Shown in pieces: positions 19,208 through 59,239 of a DNA stretch of 64,000 bases (within the stretch, counting starts at the first letter, position 1; each line of letters opens with the position of its first letter). Made by a program: the position numbers and the translations under genes. Below the pieces are notes generated by a model. That model did no database searches and was not told where the DNA came from. It worked only from the letters and a program-made list of their open reading frames with translations. This DNA is from a virus: positions 1 through 64,000 of IMG/VR virus record IMGVR_UViG_3300028025_000091; one strand, written 5' to 3'.

Positions 19208-19546
19208 ATGAAAAGCACAGATTTTAAAAAATTAATTAAAGAAGCCGTAAAAGAAGCAATTCAAGAAGAATTGAAGGATATTTTATTGGAGGCTGTAAAA
19301 TCACCTAAACAAGTAGTTAGAGAGTCATATGCTCCACCTGCTCAACCATCACAACCATCTTACGCTCCCCCACCAGTAGACTTCAGATCAAAATATGCTG
19401 AAGTATTAGGCGAAACCGCTATGAGTTTTACATCTCAAAATGCTCAACCCTCATTTAGACCCCAATCAAGTGACCCAGTAAATGGTAATTTAGGTGTAGG
19501 TGAAGTAGATATGAATCAAATTATGGGACTTTTAAACACTAAATAA
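19208..19546 (+). CDS. Late hypothetical protein with KKLIKEAVKE leader
   Basis: ORF track; late promoter. Confidence 0.75.
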   Translation: MKSTDFKKLIKEAVKEAIQEELKDILLEAVKSPKQVVRESYAPPAQPSQPSYAPPPVDFRSKYAEVLGETAMSFTSQNAQPSFRPQSSDPVNGNLGVGEVDMNQIMGLLNTK

Positions 19547-33246: not shown

Positions 33247-33705
33247 ATGAAAAATTGGTTATATGAAAACAGGGAAATCCAAGAAATAACAGATTTCCCT
33301 GAAGACACATTTGGTTTTATTTATATTACTACTCACATCCCAACAGGTAATTCATATCTAGGAAAAAAATCGTTATACCATAACGTTAAGAAAAAACTAG
33401 GTAAAAAAGAATTAGCTGAACAACCTGTAACTAGAGGTAGAAAATCCACCACAAAACAAATTACGAAAGAATCTGATTGGAAAACCTATTTTGGTTCAGC
33501 TAAACCTATCCTTGAATTAATAAAACAAGGTAAACAAGACGAATTCAAACGTAAAATTCTACATTTTGTAGCCAATAAAAAACTACTTACATATTACGAA
33601 TGTAAATATCTATTTCAATTAGGCGTTTTAGAAAAACCTAATGAATGGATAAACGATAATATTTTAGGTAAGTTTTTCCGAAAAGACTTTGTTTCCCAAG
33701 ACTAG
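33247..33705 (+). CDS. GIY-YIG-like nuclease domain protein
   Basis: GFIYITT....YLGKK...W..YFGS...F.RKIL. Confidence 0.7.
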   Translation: MKNWLYENREIQEITDFPEDTFGFIYITTHIPTGNSYLGKKSLYHNVKKKLGKKELAEQPVTRGRKSTTKQITKESDWKTYFGSAKPILELIKQGKQDEFKRKILHFVANKKLLTYYECKYLFQLGVLEKPNEWINDNILGKFFRKDFVSQD

Positions 33706-33723
33706 GTTCATATCTTGGCATCC

Positions 33724-34653
33724 ATGGTAAATGAACTATTAGTTAATCTAGTCAATGGTGTTTTAGGTACTGGAAAACGTACCGCAAGAGGAAATCAATC
33801 CTATACTTGTCCATTTTGCCATCACCATAAACCAAAACTCGAAGTAAACTTTACTGAAAATACAGAAGGAATTAACCAATGGGCTTGTTGGGCTTGTGGT
33901 AAGAAAGGTAAAACCATAAGAAGTTTATTTAAACAAGTACAAGTTGATGCTAGTTACTTTCAGGAATTAAGTAAGTTAGTTAAAAATGTTTCTCGTGATG
34001 ATATAGGTGAGGTAAAACAATCCATACTTGAACTTCCAAAAGAATATAAATCTTTCTTAAACAATAAAGATATTATTGCAAGACATGCTCTTGCTTATCT
34101 TAAAAAGAGAAACATTACAAAACAAGATATTCTCAAATACAACATAGGCTACTGCAATTCAGGTCAATATGCTAAAATGATAGTTATACCCTCATATGAT
34201 GCTAACGGTAAATTAAATTATTTCACCGCAAGATCATTCGAGAAAGATCCTTACACCAAATACCGCAATCCCGAAACGTCTCGCGATATTATACCGTTTG
34301 AATTGTTTATTAATTGGGATTTACCAATCATATTATGTGAAGGACCATTTGATGCTATTGCTATAAAACGTAATGCTGTACCATTATTTGGTAAAAATAT
34401 TCAAGCTAGTTTGATGAAAAAGCTAGTAGAATCTAAAGTACAAAAAATATATATTGCCCTAGATAATGATGCTGTTAAACAAGCCCTTGGCTTCTGCGAA
34501 CAGCTTTTAGACATTGGAAAGGAAGTCTACTTGGTAGAACTAGAAGGTAAAGATCCTAGTGATATGGGATTTGAAAACTTCACCAAATTAGTACAAACCG
34601 TTTCTCCGTTAACACAATATAAACTGATGGAGAAAAAATTATCTATAATATGA
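33724..34653 (+). CDS. DNA primase (Zn finger plus TOPRIM); start probably 33724
   Basis: CPFC..H...CWAC, EGPFDA, LDND, KDPSD; class II promoter at 33688. Confidence 0.9.
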   Translation: MVNELLVNLVNGVLGTGKRTARGNQSYTCPFCHHHKPKLEVNFTENTEGINQWACWACGKKGKTIRSLFKQVQVDASYFQELSKLVKNVSRDDIGEVKQSILELPKEYKSFLNNKDIIARHALAYLKKRNITKQDILKYNIGYCNSGQYAKMIVIPSYDANGKLNYFTARSFEKDPYTKYRNPETSRDIIPFELFINWDLPIILCEGPFDAIAIKRNAVPLFGKNIQASLMKKLVESKVQKIYIALDNDAVKQALGFCEQLLDIGKEVYLVELEGKDPSDMGFENFTKLVQTVSPLTQYKLMEKKLSII

Positions 34654-35423
34654 AAAAACGTAATATTAAACACGTTAATAATCGCATTCTTGAGATTTCA
34701 GATGATGCAAAACAAATTACATTACCCGATTCTAGATACTACAGACGAAATGGAGAATATTATCCTTCAATTACACACGTTTTAAGTTGTTATCCAAAAG
34801 GTAAACACTTTGAAGAATGGTTAAAAAACATGGGTCGTTCAGCTGATTACATTGTTAGAAAAGCTGGTGAAGATGGAACTAAAGTACATGAAATGATTGA
34901 GGAATATTTAGAAGGTAAAGAAATGAACTTTTTAAATGCATCTGGATACCCACAATATGATCCATCTATTTGGCAAATGTTCTTACGTTTTGTTGATTTT
35001 TGGGAAACTCATCAACCTGAATTGATTGATCAAGAAATCCACTTATTCTCAGATGAACTTAGAGTAGCAGGTACAACAGATTTAGTTTGTAGAATTGATA
35101 ATTCTTTATGGATTATTGATCATAAAACCTCAAACCATATCCAAACTACTTATGAATTACAAGCAGCAGTTTATGCTCATTGTTATGAAGAATGTTTTGG
35201 TGTTAAACCTGATAAAACTGGTATTTTATGGTTAAAATCAAACAAACGTAAAGCGTCTAAAGATAAAATGCAAGGTAAAGGATGGGAAATGATTTTACCA
35301 TCTCGCACACAAGAAGAAAATATTGAAATCTTTAAAACAGTAAAACGTCTATTTGATTTAGAAAATCCAAATGAAGCACCTATATTTACTGAATTTAAAA
35401 CGAGCGTTAAGAAAGAGGCGTAA
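34650..35423 (+). CDS. PD-(D/E)xK exonuclease (RecB/Cas4-like)
   Basis: YPSITHVL, GTKVH, AGTTD, IIDHKTS, QAAVY. Confidence 0.85.
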   Translation: MKKRNIKHVNNRILEISDDAKQITLPDSRYYRRNGEYYPSITHVLSCYPKGKHFEEWLKNMGRSADYIVRKAGEDGTKVHEMIEEYLEGKEMNFLNASGYPQYDPSIWQMFLRFVDFWETHQPELIDQEIHLFSDELRVAGTTDLVCRIDNSLWIIDHKTSNHIQTTYELQAAVYAHCYEECFGVKPDKTGILWLKSNKRKASKDKMQGKGWEMILPSRTQEENIEIFKTVKRLFDLENPNEAPIFTEFKTSVKKEA

Positions 35424-35434
35424 TATGTATAATT

Positions 35435-36190
35435 ATGATAAGTCTAGTTCAATTATTGAAGGAAGTAAAAGGTACTCCTAAAGCTATATTTTTAGCTGGT
35501 CCTGCGGGAAGTGGAAAATCCTATATATCTTCTAAACTTATCCCCAATACATTTACAGTTATCAATTCAGATGACACTTACGAAGAGTTATTAAAAGCAA
35601 GTGGAATTGGTTTAAAACAAAAAGATTTTACACCTGACCAATTATCTCAAGCTTCTAAATTACAAGCACAAGCTAGAAAAGTTACTCAAGACAAACTAGC
35701 TAAATCAGTAGAAGATAAAAATAATATTGTTATTGATGGAACTGGTGCTGCATCTGGACCTGTATTAAAGAAAAAACAACAACTAGAAGATTTAGGGTAT
35801 GAAACATTGATGTTAATGATCTATGTTTCTCCCTTAACTTCACTTGAACGTAATCAAGAACGTGATAGAAGTTTGATGCCTGGAATTGTATTACGTACTT
35901 GGAGAGATGTAAATAAAAATATTGAAACGTATAAACAAGCGTTTGGTAATAATTTTATCTTATTAAACAACAATCCAAAAGACGCTAAACAAGAGTTTAA
36001 CACTGATTTGCTTGAACCATATATTCAAGCATCTACAGCTGTAGGTAAACCTAAAACACCTGAAGAACAAGCAAAATCAGATGCTGAAAAAGCTCAATTG
36101 AATAAAGATATTGAATCTATGGTTAATCAATTACCTAAATTTGATACTCTAGATACAGCTAAAAATAAAATAAATGAATTCGTTAGTTAA
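35435..36190 (+). CDS. P-loop kinase (Zeta-toxin/Pnk-like)
   Basis: AGPAGSGKS, INSDD, IDGTG, SLERNQER lid. Confidence 0.8.
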   Translation: MISLVQLLKEVKGTPKAIFLAGPAGSGKSYISSKLIPNTFTVINSDDTYEELLKASGIGLKQKDFTPDQLSQASKLQAQARKVTQDKLAKSVEDKNNIVIDGTGAASGPVLKKKQQLEDLGYETLMLMIYVSPLTSLERNQERDRSLMPGIVLRTWRDVNKNIETYKQAFGNNFILLNNNPKDAKQEFNTDLLEPYIQASTAVGKPKTPEEQAKSDAEKAQLNKDIESMVNQLPKFDTLDTAKNKINEFVS

Positions 36191-37871
36191 AGCGCTTATA
36201 CAACCTCTATTAGAAGCAATGCAGAATGGTATTGCTTTAGTACCTGGTGGTTTTAAACCGCCTACAATTGGTCATTTTGCATTGGTAGATGAAGTAGCAA
36301 AATACCCTGGAGTAGATAAAGTGATTGTTCTTATAGGACATAAAACACGTGATGGGGTAACTAAAGAAGAAAGTAAAGCGATATGGGATATTTACAAAAA
36401 ATATCTTCCTTCAAACGTTGAAATACAAATAGCAGATAATGCATCCCCAATTTCAGACGTTGGATCACTAATCAAAAATAATCCGGACACAATGTACTAT
36501 CCTGTAGTAGGGATTAGAGGTGAAATGGATTTAGGTGATTTGAAACGTTTTGATAGCATGAAAGGAAAGTATGAAAATTTTAAACCTATCGTTATTAAAT
36601 CAGAAGAAAGTGAAGACCGTATTAGTGGTACAAACACACGTGCTGCCTTAATTGGTGGGGAAAAAGAAAGATTCCAAACATACCTCCCAACTGAACTCTC
36701 AGATAAAGAAAAAGATGAAGTTTGGAATATATTACAAAAATCCCCTATTGAAGAAATGTATGCTGAACCAAGCAAGTTTAGCTACCCTCCAATGATTAAA
36801 TCACTTACAGAATATATGTTAGATAAAGGTATGAATATTCGTCCTTTACCTAAAGTAAAATTTGTAGATGATGATGCTGAAAACGCTCAAAATTTCTTTG
36901 GTAAAACAGCGTATTATGACCCAAATGAACGCGTTATAGTACTTTACACATATGGACGCCATCCAAAAGATGTTATGCGTTCATACGCGCACGAAATGGT
37001 TCATCATATGCAAAACTGTGATAATCGTTTACAAAATATTTCAACCCAAAATACAAACGAAGAAGGTGATTTACCTGAAATCGAAAGAGAAGCATACGAA
37101 AAAGGAAATATGACTTTCCGTAATTGGACAGATACACTAACTGAAGGTGTATTTGGAGACAGAATAGTATGTGATAATTGTGATTGGAGTTGGAAAATAA
37201 AAGATGGTGGAGATGATTTATACATTTGTCATAAATGTGGGCATGATAATACTCCAACCCCATTAAATGAAGGCCGTTACGATAAAATTACAAATGTTAT
37301 TTCCTCTAAAATCTTTAACCAATGGAGAGAAGATTTTAACAATGGTGCTAAAGCATCTCGTTTAGAACAATTTTTCCCATTTGAAGGTGAAGATATAGAC
37401 ATAGACGCTAATATATCCTTCATTCCAGGAATAGGAGTACTTAGAGTAGATGGAGGTGCTGATGATCAAACAAATTATATTGAAGTAAGATTTGAAATAG
37501 ACCCCGAAAAGCTTCCTGAATTCTGGGAAGAAATTTCAATGAATTTAAAAGATGTTATTCGCCATGAAATAGAACATTTAACTCACGGTGAAGGTGGCTT
37601 ATCTAACCCAGCTAAATATATGGAAGATGATACACTTATTCGTAAAATAATTGATGCTAAATTGTTATCACCTGCTCAATATTTTAAATTAGAAAAAGAA
37701 ATAGATGCTAACCTACAAGGAATGTATCTACGTGCTAAAAAAGAAAAACGTGAATTTAAAGATGTTATAGACACTTATTTGGATGCTCAAGATATAACAC
37801 CTGAAGAAAAAGAAGAAATACTAGATCTTTGGAGAAGCAGATTACCTGCATTAAATTTGCCCAAATTTTAA
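36174..37871 (+). CDS. Multidomain protein: HxGH-type nucleotidyltransferase, HExxH domain, Zn ribbon, second HExxH domain
   Basis: PGGFKPPTIGH and ISGTNTR; AHEMVH; CDNC...CHKC; RHEIEH. Confidence 0.8.
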   Translation: MNSLVKALIQPLLEAMQNGIALVPGGFKPPTIGHFALVDEVAKYPGVDKVIVLIGHKTRDGVTKEESKAIWDIYKKYLPSNVEIQIADNASPISDVGSLIKNNPDTMYYPVVGIRGEMDLGDLKRFDSMKGKYENFKPIVIKSEESEDRISGTNTRAALIGGEKERFQTYLPTELSDKEKDEVWNILQKSPIEEMYAEPSKFSYPPMIKSLTEYMLDKGMNIRPLPKVKFVDDDAENAQNFFGKTAYYDPNERVIVLYTYGRHPKDVMRSYAHEMVHHMQNCDNRLQNISTQNTNEEGDLPEIEREAYEKGNMTFRNWTDTLTEGVFGDRIVCDNCDWSWKIKDGGDDLYICHKCGHDNTPTPLNEGRYDKITNVISSKIFNQWREDFNNGAKASRLEQFFPFEGEDIDIDANISFIPGIGVLRVDGGADDQTNYIEVRFEIDPEKLPEFWEEISMNLKDVIRHEIEHLTHGEGGLSNPAKYMEDDTLIRKIIDAKLLSPAQYFKLEKEIDANLQGMYLRAKKEKREFKDVIDTYLDAQDITPEEKEEILDLWRSRLPALNLPKF

Positions 37872-37872
37872 T

Positions 37873-38406
37873 ATGAAAAAAACACCTACATTATTAGACT
37901 TATACGAGGCCATTAAACCCAAATATACCATTTTTTGTGATATGGATGGTGTGTTAGTTGACTTTGATAAAGGATATGAAGAATTAACGGGTAAACATAC
38001 TAAACACGTTGATTTACAAGACAAAAACGAATTTTGGAGTTTATTAAATCGTAGTTTAAAAGAAAAAGATTTAACAGAATATGATTATTGGGTAAATCTA
38101 GAATGGATGCCTGATGGACAAACACTTTGGGACTATATTAAAGGATACAACCCATATATATTAACGGCTCCTTCAAGAGATCCTGGTTCTAGACAAGGAA
38201 AAACTGAATGGGTTACTCGTTTAGATGGTATGAAAAAATTATATTTTAAACCGGCTTATGCTAAAGCAGAATATGCTGGTAAAAATCGTATACTTATAGA
38301 CGATAGACAAGACACCATTGATAAATGGAATGCTAATGGAGGTATAGGAATTTTTCACACCTCAGCAGCAAACACAATTAAACAACTTCAAAAATTAGGA
38401 CTATAA
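37873..38406 (+). CDS. HAD-family 5'(3')-deoxyribonucleotidase-like phosphatase
   Basis: DMDGVLVDF, ILTAP, K..W, LIDDR. Confidence 0.85.
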   Translation: MKKTPTLLDLYEAIKPKYTIFCDMDGVLVDFDKGYEELTGKHTKHVDLQDKNEFWSLLNRSLKEKDLTEYDYWVNLEWMPDGQTLWDYIKGYNPYILTAPSRDPGSRQGKTEWVTRLDGMKKLYFKPAYAKAEYAGKNRILIDDRQDTIDKWNANGGIGIFHTSAANTIKQLQKLGL

Positions 38407-38978
38407 TGTCAGATTCAGTTTTAAAAAAAGAATTCCAAAAAAGAGACGTAGAACGTTTACGCAACCTGGTAGCAGGTAAACATGGTAATCGTACTACTAT
38501 GGGAATTGGTTATAATGGACCCCAAGAAGAGGAACATAAAGAAGGTGATGTTTGGCAACAAGGTGGTAGAACTTGGACTATTAAAGACGGTATTAAAGAA
38601 AATGTTACTAAGTTAGATAAATTTAAAAAAGTAGCAGTTCCATTATTTTGTCCAAATTGTAAACAAGTAATGGATAAACAATTAGATCCATTTTATTATA
38701 AATCTTATGGTGAATGTTTAGACTGTAGAACAGTTACTGAAACAAAATTAAAAGTTTCGGGTGAATGGCAAGATCATATTAATGAAACATTCAATGCTGA
38801 AATTGATCAACAAATAGAAGAATATAAAAGTTACTTTGAAAATATCCTTTCAGAAGGTAATGAAGGATATGTTTCCGAAAATGGTGAAGTACAAAAATGG
38901 GTTGGTGGAATAGATAGAGAACGTGCAGAACACGCTCTAAGTGAAATGATTAAACATTTAAACTCCCTTAAAAAATAA
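38406..38978 (+). CDS. Hypothetical protein with CxxC-CxxC zinc finger
   Basis: CPNC...CLDC. Confidence 0.75.
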   Translation: MSDSVLKKEFQKRDVERLRNLVAGKHGNRTTMGIGYNGPQEEEHKEGDVWQQGGRTWTIKDGIKENVTKLDKFKKVAVPLFCPNCKQVMDKQLDPFYYKSYGECLDCRTVTETKLKVSGEWQDHINETFNAEIDQQIEEYKSYFENILSEGNEGYVSENGEVQKWVGGIDRERAEHALSEMIKHLNSLKK

Positions 38979-39601
38979 TGGAAACTTTTGCAATGGTAAC
39001 TACAATTGCTGTAGCGTTAATAACAGCAGTATTTGGCCCAATTATAGTAAATTGGGCTAGATTGAAAATGGAAAAGAAAACTAAAGTAACCCCAATGAGA
39101 GAGGCCCTAGAAGCCTCTACTTTAGTTGATAGTCAACTTGAAATCATTCTTGATGAATTAAAATGTGATAGGGTATGGTTACAACAATTCCATAATGGAG
39201 GCCATTTTTACCCTACAGGTAAATCCATTCAAAAATTCTCTATATTTTACGAGAAAACAACCCCAGATCTACCTCATCTGCAACACACATTTCAAAACAT
39301 CCCAGTATCTTTATTCCCTAGAGTGTTATCTAAAATATATCAAGATAACGAAATTGCAATAGATGATGTATCTACATCAGAAGATACTTATGGTTTAGAA
39401 TACATGACTACCAATTTTGGAACCAAATCAGTATGTATGCTTGGCTTATATAGTTTAGATGACCATTTAATTGGTGTGTTAGGTATTTCATTTAAAAAGG
39501 CTCATCATTTGAAAAGAGATGAATGGGTTCTTATTAGACAGAAAGCAGGAGTTATAGGAACACTAATTTCCGAATATTTATACGCAACAACTAAGAAATA
39601 A
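38978..39601 (+). CDS. N-terminal TM plus GAF-like domain protein (candidate T4 T-like holin)
   Basis: Single TM segment; LKCDRVWL.QFHNG...KS..........LIGVLGI GAF-like pattern. Confidence 0.55.
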   Translation: METFAMVTTIAVALITAVFGPIIVNWARLKMEKKTKVTPMREALEASTLVDSQLEIILDELKCDRVWLQQFHNGGHFYPTGKSIQKFSIFYEKTTPDLPHLQHTFQNIPVSLFPRVLSKIYQDNEIAIDDVSTSEDTYGLEYMTTNFGTKSVCMLGLYSLDDHLIGVLGISFKKAHHLKRDEWVLIRQKAGVIGTLISEYLYATTKK

Positions 39602-55434: not shown

Positions 55435-56067
55435 ATGAATAAACAACTACTAATAGAAACCAGACATTTCAGTCCAAAACCACTTACGTTATTGGAAGGA
55501 ATGAAAACCAACGGAAATGTTTTCGTTGAAGGAATATTGGCTACAGTTGAAGTTAAAAACGGTAATGGCCGTTATTACCCTAGAGAATTATGGGAACGTG
55601 AAATCGACAATTTTGCACGTAAAATCCAAATGAAATCTACTGAGACATGTGGTGAATTAGACCATCCTGACTCGCAAGTAATCAACCTTAAAAACGCATC
55701 TCATGCGATACGTGAATTGTATTGGAAAGGTGATGAAATATGGGGTAAAGTAGAAATTTTCTCTGATATGGGTGATTTAGGTACCTCATCTGGTCGTATA
55801 GCTGGAGCGTTAGTTAAAAATGGCCTATTGATTGGTATTTCTTCTCGTGGAATGGGTTCATTAAAACAAGTTGGTGAAATAATGGAGGTACAAGATGACT
55901 TCGAATTATTAACTTGGGATTTAGTTTCCAACCCATCAAATCCAGATTCATGGATGAAAAACGGTGCGTTAAACGAATCACGTACTACATATTTAGATCC
56001 ATACGCTAAAACAAACTCACTTATTACCGAAATTTTATGTGCTAAAGGCACGTGTCCTATATTTTAA
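55435..56067 (+). CDS. gp21: Prohead core protease (gp21-like)
   Basis: KNGNGRYYP, GELDHP, SH, GISSRGMGS, WDLVSNPS. Confidence 0.95.
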   Translation: MNKQLLIETRHFSPKPLTLLEGMKTNGNVFVEGILATVEVKNGNGRYYPRELWEREIDNFARKIQMKSTETCGELDHPDSQVINLKNASHAIRELYWKGDEIWGKVEIFSDMGDLGTSSGRIAGALVKNGLLIGISSRGMGSLKQVGEIMEVQDDFELLTWDLVSNPSNPDSWMKNGALNESRTTYLDPYAKTNSLITEILCAKGTCPIF

Positions 56068-57517: not shown

Positions 57518-59239
57518 ATGTCAAGTATTAATTCATTACTAGAAAGCGCAGCAAGTGGGTGGAAAAACCTACAAAGCGACGCAGCTCGTATGTCCTCAAA
57601 ATGGGGTAAAACGGGATTATTAGAAGGATTAGGAAGCGAAGTTGATAAAAACAACATGGCTATGATCCTTGAAAACCAAGCAAAACAATTGGTTGTTGAG
57701 CAATCTTCAACTCAAGCAGGAGGTTCAGGATTTACAACTGGAACCGGTGAAAACTGGGCTGGAGTAGCTCTTCCATTGGTACGTAAAGTATTTGGTTCTT
57801 TATCAACTAAAGAATTCATGTCTGTACAACCAATGAATTTGCCATCTGGACTTGTATTCTTCTTAGATTTCCAATATGGTGATTCTAACGGTAAAGCAGC
57901 TCCTACGGGTCCATTTGGTCCTGGTGGAAATCCTTACGGTGCTACATCTTCAATGTACGGTAACACTAACCCAGGTGTTAATGCTGATGCATCTCAAGGT
58001 TTGTATGGTGCAGGTCGTTTTGCATACTCAATCAACCAATTCTCAGCTTCTGTAGCTACAACTCGTACAACTGCTCTTTGGCAAGATGTAGATTATGATA
58101 CAACTTTATCTGCTTCTATAGCTGCTGGTAATTATTCAAAAGTTACTGTTACTGTTGGTGCTGGTACTAACGCATTACGCCCTGATTTCAAAGGTGTTCG
58201 TGCATTCGTATTAGCTTCAGGTTCAGCAACTACTCCTCAAGCTGTACCAGTTGCTAACTTGTTACCTCAATATACAGCTACTGACGGAACTTCTACAGTT
58301 TCATTCATATTCTCAGGATCTGCAAGTGGTCCAGGTGGTGGTGTACCAGGTACTGGTTCAGCAACTACAAACAACTCATTGTTCTACAACGTTCAACCAG
58401 CTGATAACTACAGAGGTGACTTCGAAGATAGCAATGGTGCTGGTTATCCAAATGCTGATTCTACATCTTCTGATCAATTAGCTATTCCACAGATTAACAT
58501 CAACATGAAATCTGAAGCTATTGTTGCTAAAACACGTAAATTGAAAGCACAATGGACACCAGAATTTGCTCAAGATTTGAACGCATACCAATCATTGGAT
58601 GCTGAAGCTGAGTTAACATCTATCATGTCTGAGTACATCGCTCTTGAGATCGACTTAGAAAACTTAGATATGTTGATTCAAGATGCATCTGCTTGGGATG
58701 AGTACTGGTCAGCTAAAAACAACAACTATTTGAACGCAGGTAAAACAGCTTGGGCTGATGATGCTGGTTACTACAACACACAAGGTCAGTGGTTCCAAAC
58801 TTTAGGTACTAAAATGCAGAAAGTTAGTAACAAAATCCACCAGAAAACTCTTCGTGGAGGTGCTAACTTCTTATTATGTTCTCCTTCAGTAGCAACTATC
58901 TTGGAATCAATCCCAGGATTTGCTGCAGGATCTGATGGTGATGTAACTAAAGCGTCTTACGCATTTGGTATCCAGAAAGCGGGTCAAATGAATAACCGTT
59001 ACACAGTTTACAAAAACCCTTACATGACAGAAAACTTGATCTTGATGGGTTATAGAGGAGCTCAATTCCTTGAAACTGGTGCGGTATTTGCTCCATATGT
59101 TCCATTAATCATGACACCTCTTGTGTACGATCCAACTACATTTACTCCACGTAAAGGTTTATTGACTCGTTACGCTAAGAAAATGATCCGTCCGGAATTC
59201 TTCGGTCGTATCTGGGTTAACGATTTGAACGTAATCTAA
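57518..59239 (+). CDS. gp23: Major capsid protein (gp23-like)
   Basis: LENQ, PLVRKVF, VQPMNLPSGLVF, AKTRKLKAQWTPEFAQDLNAY, APYVPL, TRYA. Confidence 0.95.
   Translation: MSSINSLLESAASGWKNLQSDAARMSSKWGKTGLLEGLGSEVDKNNMAMILENQAKQLVVEQSSTQAGGSGFTTGTGENWAGVALPLVRKVFGSLSTKEFMSVQPMNLPSGLVFFLDFQYGDSNGKAAPTGPFGPGGNPYGATSSMYGNTNPGVNADASQGLYGAGRFAYSINQFSASVATTRTTALWQDVDYDTTLSASIAAGNYSKVTVTVGAGTNALRPDFKGVRAFVLASGSATTPQAVPVANLLPQYTATDGTSTVSFIFSGSASGPGGGVPGTGSATTNNSLFYNVQPADNYRGDFEDSNGAGYPNADSTSSDQLAIPQININMKSEAIVAKTRKLKAQWTPEFAQDLNAYQSLDAEAELTSIMSEYIALEIDLENLDMLIQDASAWDEYWSAKNNNYLNAGKTAWADDAGYYNTQGQWFQTLGTKMQKVSNKIHQKTLRGGANFLLCSPSVATILESIPGFAAGSDGDVTKASYAFGIQKAGQMNNRYTVYKNPYMTENLILMGYRGAQFLETGAVFAPYVPLIMTPLVYDPTTFTPRKGLLTRYAKKMIRPEFFGRIWVNDLNVI

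Follow-up and report, generated by a model that had tools for sequence, protein, structure and literature searches.

We analysed positions 1 to 64,000 of the IMG/VR virus record IMGVR_UViG_3300028025_000091 (the window, 64,000 nucleotides), from a genome whose major capsid protein (MCP), portal and terminase are of T4 type, and we focused on one open reading frame (ORF) whose product, P0001, strings a short N-terminal leader and four modules, A to D, into a single chain (Table 1). An earlier note on this DNA had described it as a polyprotein whose domain borders fall on protease-type (I/L)-x-E sites and which would be split into separate cargo proteins by the prohead protease. The frame is open over its whole length, and the motifs listed in that note lie where it had placed them.

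Table 1. Features of the polyprotein locus and of the head genes considered here (aa, amino-acid residues; nt, nucleotides; a slash marks the bond following the Glu of a site)
Feature	Position	Strand	Description
Polyprotein ORF, P0001	36174-37871	+	565 aa; leader, modules A, B, C and D
N-terminal leader, MNSLVKALIQPLLE	36174-36215	+	aa 1-14; amphipathic helix ending L-L-E (aa 12-14)
Module A	36216-36755	+	aa 15-194; HIGH-signature nucleotidyltransferase, PPAT/NadD fold
Module A motifs	36264-36275 and 36621-36641	+	TIGH (aa 31-34) and ISGTNTR (aa 150-156)
Joint 1, P-I-E-E	36744-36755	+	aa 191-194; disordered linker 190-199
Module B	36756-37145	+	aa 195-324; minimal zincin metallopeptidase-like domain (Wss1/SPRTN/ArdC-like), as modelled
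Module B, HEMVH	36990-37004	+	aa 273; invariant E304 and E306 on the following helix
Joint 2, L-T-E	37137-37145	+	aa 322-324; disordered linker 323-327; LTEG at aa 322-325, 37137-37148
Module C	37146-37271	+	aa 325-366; four-Cys zinc ribbon, CDNC at aa 333, CHKC at aa 352
Joint 3, L-N-E	37263-37271	+	aa 364-366; disordered linker 361-365; LNEG at aa 364-367, 37263-37274
Module D	37272-37868	+	aa 367-565; HExxH domain of a family without a name
Module D, HEIEH	37563-37577	+	aa 464
P-loop kinase	35435-36190	+	Zeta-toxin/AAA_33 type; leader MISLVQLLKE; phrog_12810; 17-nt overlap with the polyprotein start
5'-Nucleotidase, NT5C type	37873-38406	+	own leader MKKTPTLLDLYE/A; phrog_2643, 3e-31
Prohead protease	55435-56067	+	T4 gp21 family; Pfam Peptidase_S77 97 bits, cut-off 27
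MCP	57518-59239	+	Gp23 family; 573 aa; N-terminus MSSINSLLE/S

Domain anatomy of P0001

P0001 was modelled with AlphaFold2 from an alignment of 84 colinear homologues. The model, with a mean predicted local distance difference test score (pLDDT) of 82.8, contains four confident domains, in the order that the earlier note had given; its predicted template modelling score of 0.41 implies that there is no fixed packing between them. Only four segments have a pLDDT below 50: residues 145-148, a loop within module A, and residues 190-199, 323-327 and 361-365, which are the three inter-domain linkers. Each of these linkers carries one of the protease-type sites, so the domain borders do coincide with such sites, and the sites lie in disordered sequence and not within folds. 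The remaining internal [LI]xE motifs (residues 211, 300 and 447) are inside helices of folded domains. Counted over the whole chain, [LI]xE is not above chance, with 7 occurrences for 8.1 expected from composition, and only 53 of 20,000 sequence shuffles placed the motif in all three linkers: its placement in P0001 is non-random, its number unremarkable. At joint 3, E366 is conserved in at least 90% of homologues and immediately precedes GRYD, the start of module D.

Module A resembles PPAT and NadD structures of the PDB in a Foldseek search (E ∼1e-5, probability 1.0, target template modelling score at most 0.76) and matches the cytidyltransferase family phrog_3041 at 8.5e-12. The earlier note had read a literal HxGH here; the motif is really T-I-G-H, the Thr variant of (H/T)xGH, and it is accompanied by ISGTNTR, so that both the (H/T)xGH and the ISxTxxR signatures are found on a Rossmann-like fold. 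G33, H34, T153 and R156 are conserved among homologues. With the Pfam and NCBIfam models searched, module A stayed below all curated cut-offs: PF01467 scored 13.3 for a cut-off of 21, and the NCBIfam NMNAT, NadD and CoaD models 12 to 24 bits for cut-offs of 103 to 197. The P0001 chain has no kinase domain, such as the ribosylnicotinamide kinase fused in NadR; a P-loop kinase is encoded by a separate gene upstream.

For module B, all of the top 50 matches in a wide VIA-align search were zincins, the best being Wss1 (Z 8.0, root-mean-square deviation 3.5 over 100 aligned residues), SPRTN (Z 7.6) and ArdC (Z 6.5). In the model, a helix and three strands are followed by the HExxH helix and by a further helix bearing E304 and E306, and H273, E274, H277, E304 and E306 are invariant among homologues. 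All Pfam families remained under their cut-offs (M76, 12.6 for 25.2). Module B is thus, by its modelled fold, a zincin metallopeptidase-like domain. In module D, H464, E465, H468 and Y503 are invariant, E509 is conserved, and the order of helix, sheet and HExxH helix is compatible with a zincin fold. Neither a Pfam nor a PDB sequence relative of D was found: profile searches of PDB sequences with B-C-D and with D alone returned chance-level matches (the HExxH of BepA, dpy-30, E at least 0.09), and the B-C-D model gave nothing at E ≤0.001 in a Foldseek search of the PDB, its weak matches being small zincins. Similarity between B and D is limited to the HExxH motif (hhalign probability 1.6%). 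Of the two zincin-like domains of the earlier note, the first is hence supported by its fold, and for the second a zincin nature is suggested by the HExxH motif and the topology.

Module exchange at the joints

A metagenome search (E ≤0.001, clusters at 50% identity) revealed that the P0001 family comprises 3,611 clusters. We mapped the four modules on the 150 best representatives of these clusters and computed leader statistics on 149 of them. The modules occur in the orders A-B-C-D, A-B-D, A-D-B, A-C-B and D-B, module B or D is duplicated in some representatives, and each representative examined has B or D. Another 236 segments could not be assigned to A-D; most are without a Pfam match, and the others match GNAT, NT5C, T4 RegB, Maf, pol-beta palm, Tox-ART-HYD1, ART-PolyVal, DUF6934 and other families (accessions among the relatives' modules include PF18760 for ART-PolyVal, PF15633, PF14792 and PF10715 for RegB). 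By analogy with known polyvalent proteins, the ART-PolyVal, Tox-ART-HYD1, RegB, GNAT and pol-beta nucleotidyltransferase modules would be typical of injected conflict effectors (PMC5512222). Family members reach 1,549 residues, with many modules.

Close relatives document how such chains are built. Proteins with 77-87% identity to P0001 differ from it by whole inserts of 23 to 268 residues, sitting precisely at one of the three joints or at the C-terminal end; every insert begins directly after one [LIV]xE and closes with another, as in TPIQE/FVTQ...LALQE/MYAEP and TLTE/W...IDITE/SIVGD. Inserts at joint 1 measure 23 to 234 residues and have [LIV]xE on both flanks, and those at joint 2 measure 110 to 268 residues. 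The architecture is therefore not fixed: in homologues, insertion, loss, duplication and reordering of modules all take place precisely at the joints, which is the behaviour that the earlier note had proposed to look for. Free-standing B, C and D also occur in uncultured phages; the free-standing module D proteins of viruses have ∼208 to 241 residues, and a free-standing look-alike of module C, of 55 residues, is present in BFVD. The closest cultured relative, a 907-residue protein (gp183) of Flavobacterium phage vB_FspM_immuto, here called immuto, whose host is Flavobacterium sp. LMO8 (44% identity, annotated NadR), has an additional pol-beta-like N-terminal domain of ∼275 residues and lacks the zinc ribbon, module C.

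We then assessed the association of the motif with the joints, using module cores that exclude the motif and searching the next 16 residues for [LIV]xE. The motif followed 316 of the 357 internal module ends, compared with 21% of random windows in the same proteins. It was found after 115 of 128 internal copies of module B but after only 2 of 23 C-terminal ones (p = 7e-15), and after 45 of 48 internal copies of module D but 7 of 48 C-terminal ones (p = 6e-16). A C-terminal module B ends ...WEDSIKNV; module D continues with LSLPxFE/ when internal and ends with LSLPKF when C-terminal. BLAST breakpoints between architectures peak at the Glu of [LIV]xE, and no such peak was seen at the control motifs [LIV]xD, [LIV]xK, [FYW]xE and [AGST]xE. 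At the joints, P3 is L more often than I and I more often than V, P2 is mostly N, K, T or Q, and P1' is mostly G, N, S or K. On these sequence comparisons, the motif is a property of being a joint. The borders of the inserts share merely ∼6 nt, implying that the conserved element is the peptide; this rules out a DNA-level recombination adaptor as the main cause of the conservation of the motif.

Three further observations concern the repertoire of segments. A spacer of ∼21 to 25 residues, K(N)KDPFGLNxYARELxxGLEE, lies between two [LIV]xE sites in 80 of 149 representatives (P0097, P0130, P0137, P0207 and others), often directly upstream of the NT5C module or of module D. As a candidate stand-in for an internal leader it was rejected, since it is not enriched in leaderless representatives (13/31, compared with 53/87 in those with a leader; p = 0.09). 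In P0036, P0055 and P0045, a 23-residue mini-module, GTCGY(N/T)TD.(N/T)TGEKLDTP.G, flanked by VDE/ and IEE/, follows the position of P0001 residue 191; its length falls short of a domain, and it might act as a spacer or be released as a peptide. Finally, outside the window, a 474-residue ORF of the same genome (G000:C1:138667-140091) has the N-terminus MKLTDILHEIGE/A, and its first ∼140 residues are common to unnamed modules of seven representatives; judging from its sequence, this module is one that occurs both free and chained.

Leaders, prohead protease and capsid proteins

Mullaney and Black reportedly described in 1996 the T4 internal proteins, their capsid-targeting sequence and its processing by gp21. 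The N-terminus of P0001 has the same layout, that is, a propeptide of 10 to 20 residues ending in L/I-x-E (MNSLVKALIQPLLE), and the AlphaFold2 model places a helix at residues 2-16; by this likeness it is a candidate capsid-targeting propeptide. Leaders of the type MNxL(T/V)KxL...L.E start 87 of the 149 representatives, and 31 have none, which implies that the leader is separable from the enzyme fold; the same type also precedes modules other than A in P0175 and P0182. Across the genome, 40 of 226 ORFs have an [LI]xE ending at residues 10-14, for 14.5 expected. The exact leader of P0001 is not repeated elsewhere in the genome (best BLOSUM score 16, self score 79), and only the looser class ending in LxE recurs. 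An amphipathic leader of the form ...L(K/Q)xL(I/V)KE was noticed on many unrelated proteins, among them those of the ORFs at 19208, 35435, 39620, 43123, 44088, 45158, 47489 and 53494, and N-terminal sites were also seen on the MCP, the scaffold, the protease and a 479-residue ORF of the head region.

The gene at 55435, which the earlier note had called the prohead protease, is a genuine member of the T4 gp21 family by its Peptidase_S77 score; it is 32% identical to T4 gp21, and its N-terminus, MNKQLLIE/T, matches MNEPQLLIE/T of gp21. The N-terminus of the MCP resembles that of T4 gp24, MAKINELLRE/S, and its site is kept in seven related phages as ME(L/I)NxL(L/F)E/ (the T4 sequences, from NC_000866, also include FLTE/AEIGG of gp23). 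T4 gp21 cuts after Glu and strips gp24, Alt and the internal proteins of capsid-targeting propeptides of 10 to 20 residues (PMC9026906, PMC5694885); in T4, Glu-to-Asp changes at P1 prevent this processing but leave targeting intact (PMC9026906). Because the LLIE/T site of the protease and the SLLE/S site of the MCP are conserved, a specificity for hydrophobic-x-Glu has plausibly been kept in the protease lineage of this phage. The S77 protease gene was present on all four near-complete contigs carrying a family member and on three of five fragmentary ones, including contigs whose family member is leaderless. Counted over the related contigs, 7 of 10 had it, and the three without it are fragments. 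As a separate observation, the MCP joins a gp24-like N-terminus to a gp23-like propeptide (KWGKTGLLEG...AMILENQAKQ) and has a conserved (I/L)V.E/A about 60 residues in, a candidate maturation site.

Neighbouring genes

Directly downstream of the polyprotein gene lies a gene for an NT5C-type 5'-nucleotidase. The body of this protein has 40 BLAST matches among the 150 representatives; NT5C was the fused C-terminal module in 39 of 39 examined, with [LIV]xE directly upstream in 35 of them. When it stands alone, in the window and in phage immuto (L001:6990-7589), it carries a leader of 12 to 15 residues ending in LxE, LLEE in immuto. From these alignments, the NT5C gene of the window is a split form of the C-terminal module of the polyprotein, and a module released from the chain appears to gain a leader that ends in the same motif.

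Upstream, the kinase gene and module A together resemble a split NadR-like kinase/adenylyltransferase pair; no fused form of kinase and module A was seen among the 150 representatives. Of the non-overlapping ORFs of at least 60 residues in the genome, 224 of 226 are on the + strand, and the minus-strand ORFs beneath the polyprotein gene are short overlaps. No tRNA was found between 30 and 42 kb, and the T4-type late promoter sequence TATAAATA shows no enrichment in the window (23 copies for 16.5 expected).

Discussion

The four-domain anatomy, the disordered joints that bear the motif, the shuffling throughout the family, the dependence of the motif on being at a joint and the presence of a gp21-family protease are the basis on which we read P0001 as a capsid-targeted polyvalent protein which the S77 prohead protease splits into individual internal proteins; we give this reading a probability of roughly 0.55. 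The 14-residue leader, akin to the capsid-targeting sequence of T4, would bring the chain into the prohead, where the gp21-type serine protease encoded at 55435 would cut after the Glu of [L/I/V]-x-E at the three joints and where the leader ends. The products would be internal proteins, namely a nucleotidyltransferase of ∼20 kDa, a zincin of ∼15 kDa, a zinc ribbon of 42 residues and an HExxH protein of ∼23 kDa, and they would exit the capsid together with the DNA when the next host is infected.

Several points weigh against this reading. That the chain is packaged and cut, and that its leader acts in targeting, are all things that we infer, and modules B and D are themselves candidate peptidases, possibly self-cutting. 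The 31 leaderless representatives begin with the initial strand of module A (MGKVIAAYGGG...) and a further 12 of the 149 with a pol-beta-like domain, and both keep the joints, at 94% in the former, as frequent as in proteins with a leader, and at 75% in the latter; since leaderless members keep their joints, the leader is not a universal route into the capsid. The neighbours of the polyprotein gene serve replication and nucleotide metabolism (primase, exonuclease, kinase, nucleotidase), and the gene block falls within 33325 to 39575, an interval that has no copy of TATAAATA and in which no late-promoter signal was recognised. As to sampling, an A-B-C-D query was used to retrieve the representatives, which biases them towards proteins containing B or D; they are phylogenetically related, which makes the p-values optimistic; and the contigs checked for S77 all belong to related T4-like phages, so that the co-occurrence is not an independent test.

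That P0001 instead works as a single uncleaved multidomain enzyme, in which hydrophobic-x-Glu is merely a favoured linker or domain cap tolerating in-frame shuffling, seems to us unlikely. N4 vRNAP, ArdC and TraC1 do act or travel unprocessed (PMC5512222), the cleavage of family members is a deduction, and the [LI]xE count of P0001 is not above chance; a passive linker, however, does not need a three-residue motif, which is kept in 88% of joints across clusters of at most 50% identity and is lost exactly where a module turns C-terminal. The free permutation of order (A-D-B, A-C-B, D-B) speaks against any dependence of a module on particular neighbours, free-standing genes are known for each of B, C, D and NT5C, and the leader ending in LxE that a freed NT5C gains is hard to explain if the motif is a mere passive linker. 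We think it quite unlikely that the chain processes itself, the zincin of module B, and perhaps D, cutting the [LIV]xE joints in cis or in trans, in the cytoplasm or after delivery, without the prohead protease. The zincin fold of B, with its invariant HExxH and the Glu residues of the following helix, fits such a role, and the MPTase of polyvalent proteins is a hub domain proposed to free the other domains (PMC5512222); the joints persist in leaderless members, and B or D is never missing from the representatives, although the search was biased towards both. Against self-cutting, the joint motif is the one for which T4 gp21 is documented to be specific, it closes the leaders of single-domain, peptidase-free proteins (NT5C, kinase), and it stands at the N-termini of the MCP and of the protease, in places homologous to known T4 gp21 sites. 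We also know of no zincin of the module B type that cuts after hydrophobic-x-Glu.

Very unlikely, in our view, is a cytoplasmic enzyme of NAD salvage or nucleotide metabolism that acts with the upstream kinase and the downstream nucleotidase and is not virion cargo. The annotation of the immuto homologue as NadR or NMN adenylyltransferase, the PPAT/NadD fold of module A and the flanking genes, a translationally coupled P-loop kinase and a 5'-nucleotidase, are in its favour, but the NMNAT, NadD and PPAT models score far under their cut-offs (13 to 24 bits for 21 to 197), and it covers just 180 of the 565 residues, leaving joints, shuffling and leaders unexplained. Such a function would moreover be compatible with packaging, as T4 Alt is a packaged NAD-using enzyme.

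Cleavage of P0001 by the prohead protease would bring together two known systems. Polyvalent proteins, together with the analogy to RNA-virus polyproteins and release by embedded peptidases, were described by Iyer, Burroughs, Anand, de Souza and Aravind in 2017 (PMC5512222); the analogy behind the phage polyprotein strategy that the earlier note had proposed, a proposal partly supported here, had been drawn there before. Like members of the P0001 family, polyvalent proteins, which occur in phages and in conjugative elements, each carry many unrelated domains, and their architectures vary extremely; a zincin-like MPTase recurs in them as module B does here, and they are predicted to act as early delivered effectors, the role also predicted here. 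They have two to fifteen unrelated globular domains, and P0001, in a T4-like genome, has four in its AlphaFold2 model; their domain set is represented by the zincin of module B and by the ART-PolyVal, pol-beta nucleotidyltransferase and RNase modules of the relatives. The P0001 family differs in its joint motif, which fits a separate, trans-acting prohead protease and not an embedded peptidase, in its small modules (40 to 230 residues), in its occurrence in marine and lake T4-like phages, and in its HIGH-signature nucleotidyltransferase head, the passages of that article matching a term search being about Pol-beta nucleotidyltransferases only.

The T4 route for cargo with a leader and gp21 processing, taken by IPI, IPII, IPIII and Alt, has been known since the 1990s (PMC9026906, PMC5694885). 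P0001 shares with it the short amphipathic N-terminal leader ending in L/I-x-E, the gp21-family protease in the genome and a varied repertoire of small cargo, which in the relatives of P0001 includes Alt-like ADP-ribosyltransferase (ART) modules. In T4, however, every cargo protein has a gene and a leader to itself, whereas P0001 has several units in one chain with internal sites; some family members are leaderless, unlike the T4 internal proteins, and packaging is here deduced from sequence. Proteases related to gp21 in phiKZ, 201phi2-1 and SPN3US process head and inner-body proteins at multiple sites (PMC5694885, PMC9026906), with cuts after Glu at short motifs, several per chain, in ejection proteins, as we propose for P0001. 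Their motif is A/S/G-x-E, compared with [LIV]xE here, and their cuts mostly strip long propeptides, whereas the joints of P0001 separate unrelated enzymes. To our knowledge, no cassette-like shuffling at the cleavage sites of giant phages has been described. In the literature covered by our search, we found no description of polyvalent proteins cut by a prohead protease and no virion proteome of phage immuto.

What appears to be new is hence a defined joint motif that, from its sequence, would match a trans-acting prohead protease, together with the cassette-like shuffling at [LIV]xE, the interchange of leader-bearing single genes with beads on a chain, and a very large unnamed family whose constant head is a HIGH-type nucleotidyltransferase. 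More tentatively, and at somewhat less than even odds, T4-like phages of aquatic Bacteroidota-type hosts may run a cassette system for capsid cargo. Any small enzyme could be loaded either as a single gene with a leader of ∼12 residues ending in LxE or as a bead of a polyprotein with prohead-protease sites for joints, the beads would swap states and positions by in-frame exchange at the joints, and one gene would deliver pre-made effectors in stoichiometric and quickly re-assortable sets (nucleotidyltransferase, zincins, ARTs, RegB-type RNase, GNATs and nucleotidase) to the next host.

If this is true, virion cargo could be predicted from sequence by a simple rule, a leader plus LxE joints, module borders defined by sequence would aid the annotation of more than 3,600 clusters, most of whose modules are unnamed, and the family would offer a natural template for engineered T4 packaging vectors, which already use the capsid-targeting sequence. 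Should the head protease cut at the joints, these phages would possess a natural system of multiplexed protein delivery that unites polyvalent proteins with the T4 pathway of capsid targeting and processing, and the apparent giant multidomain enzymes of uncultured T4-like phages would be sets of small injected proteins.

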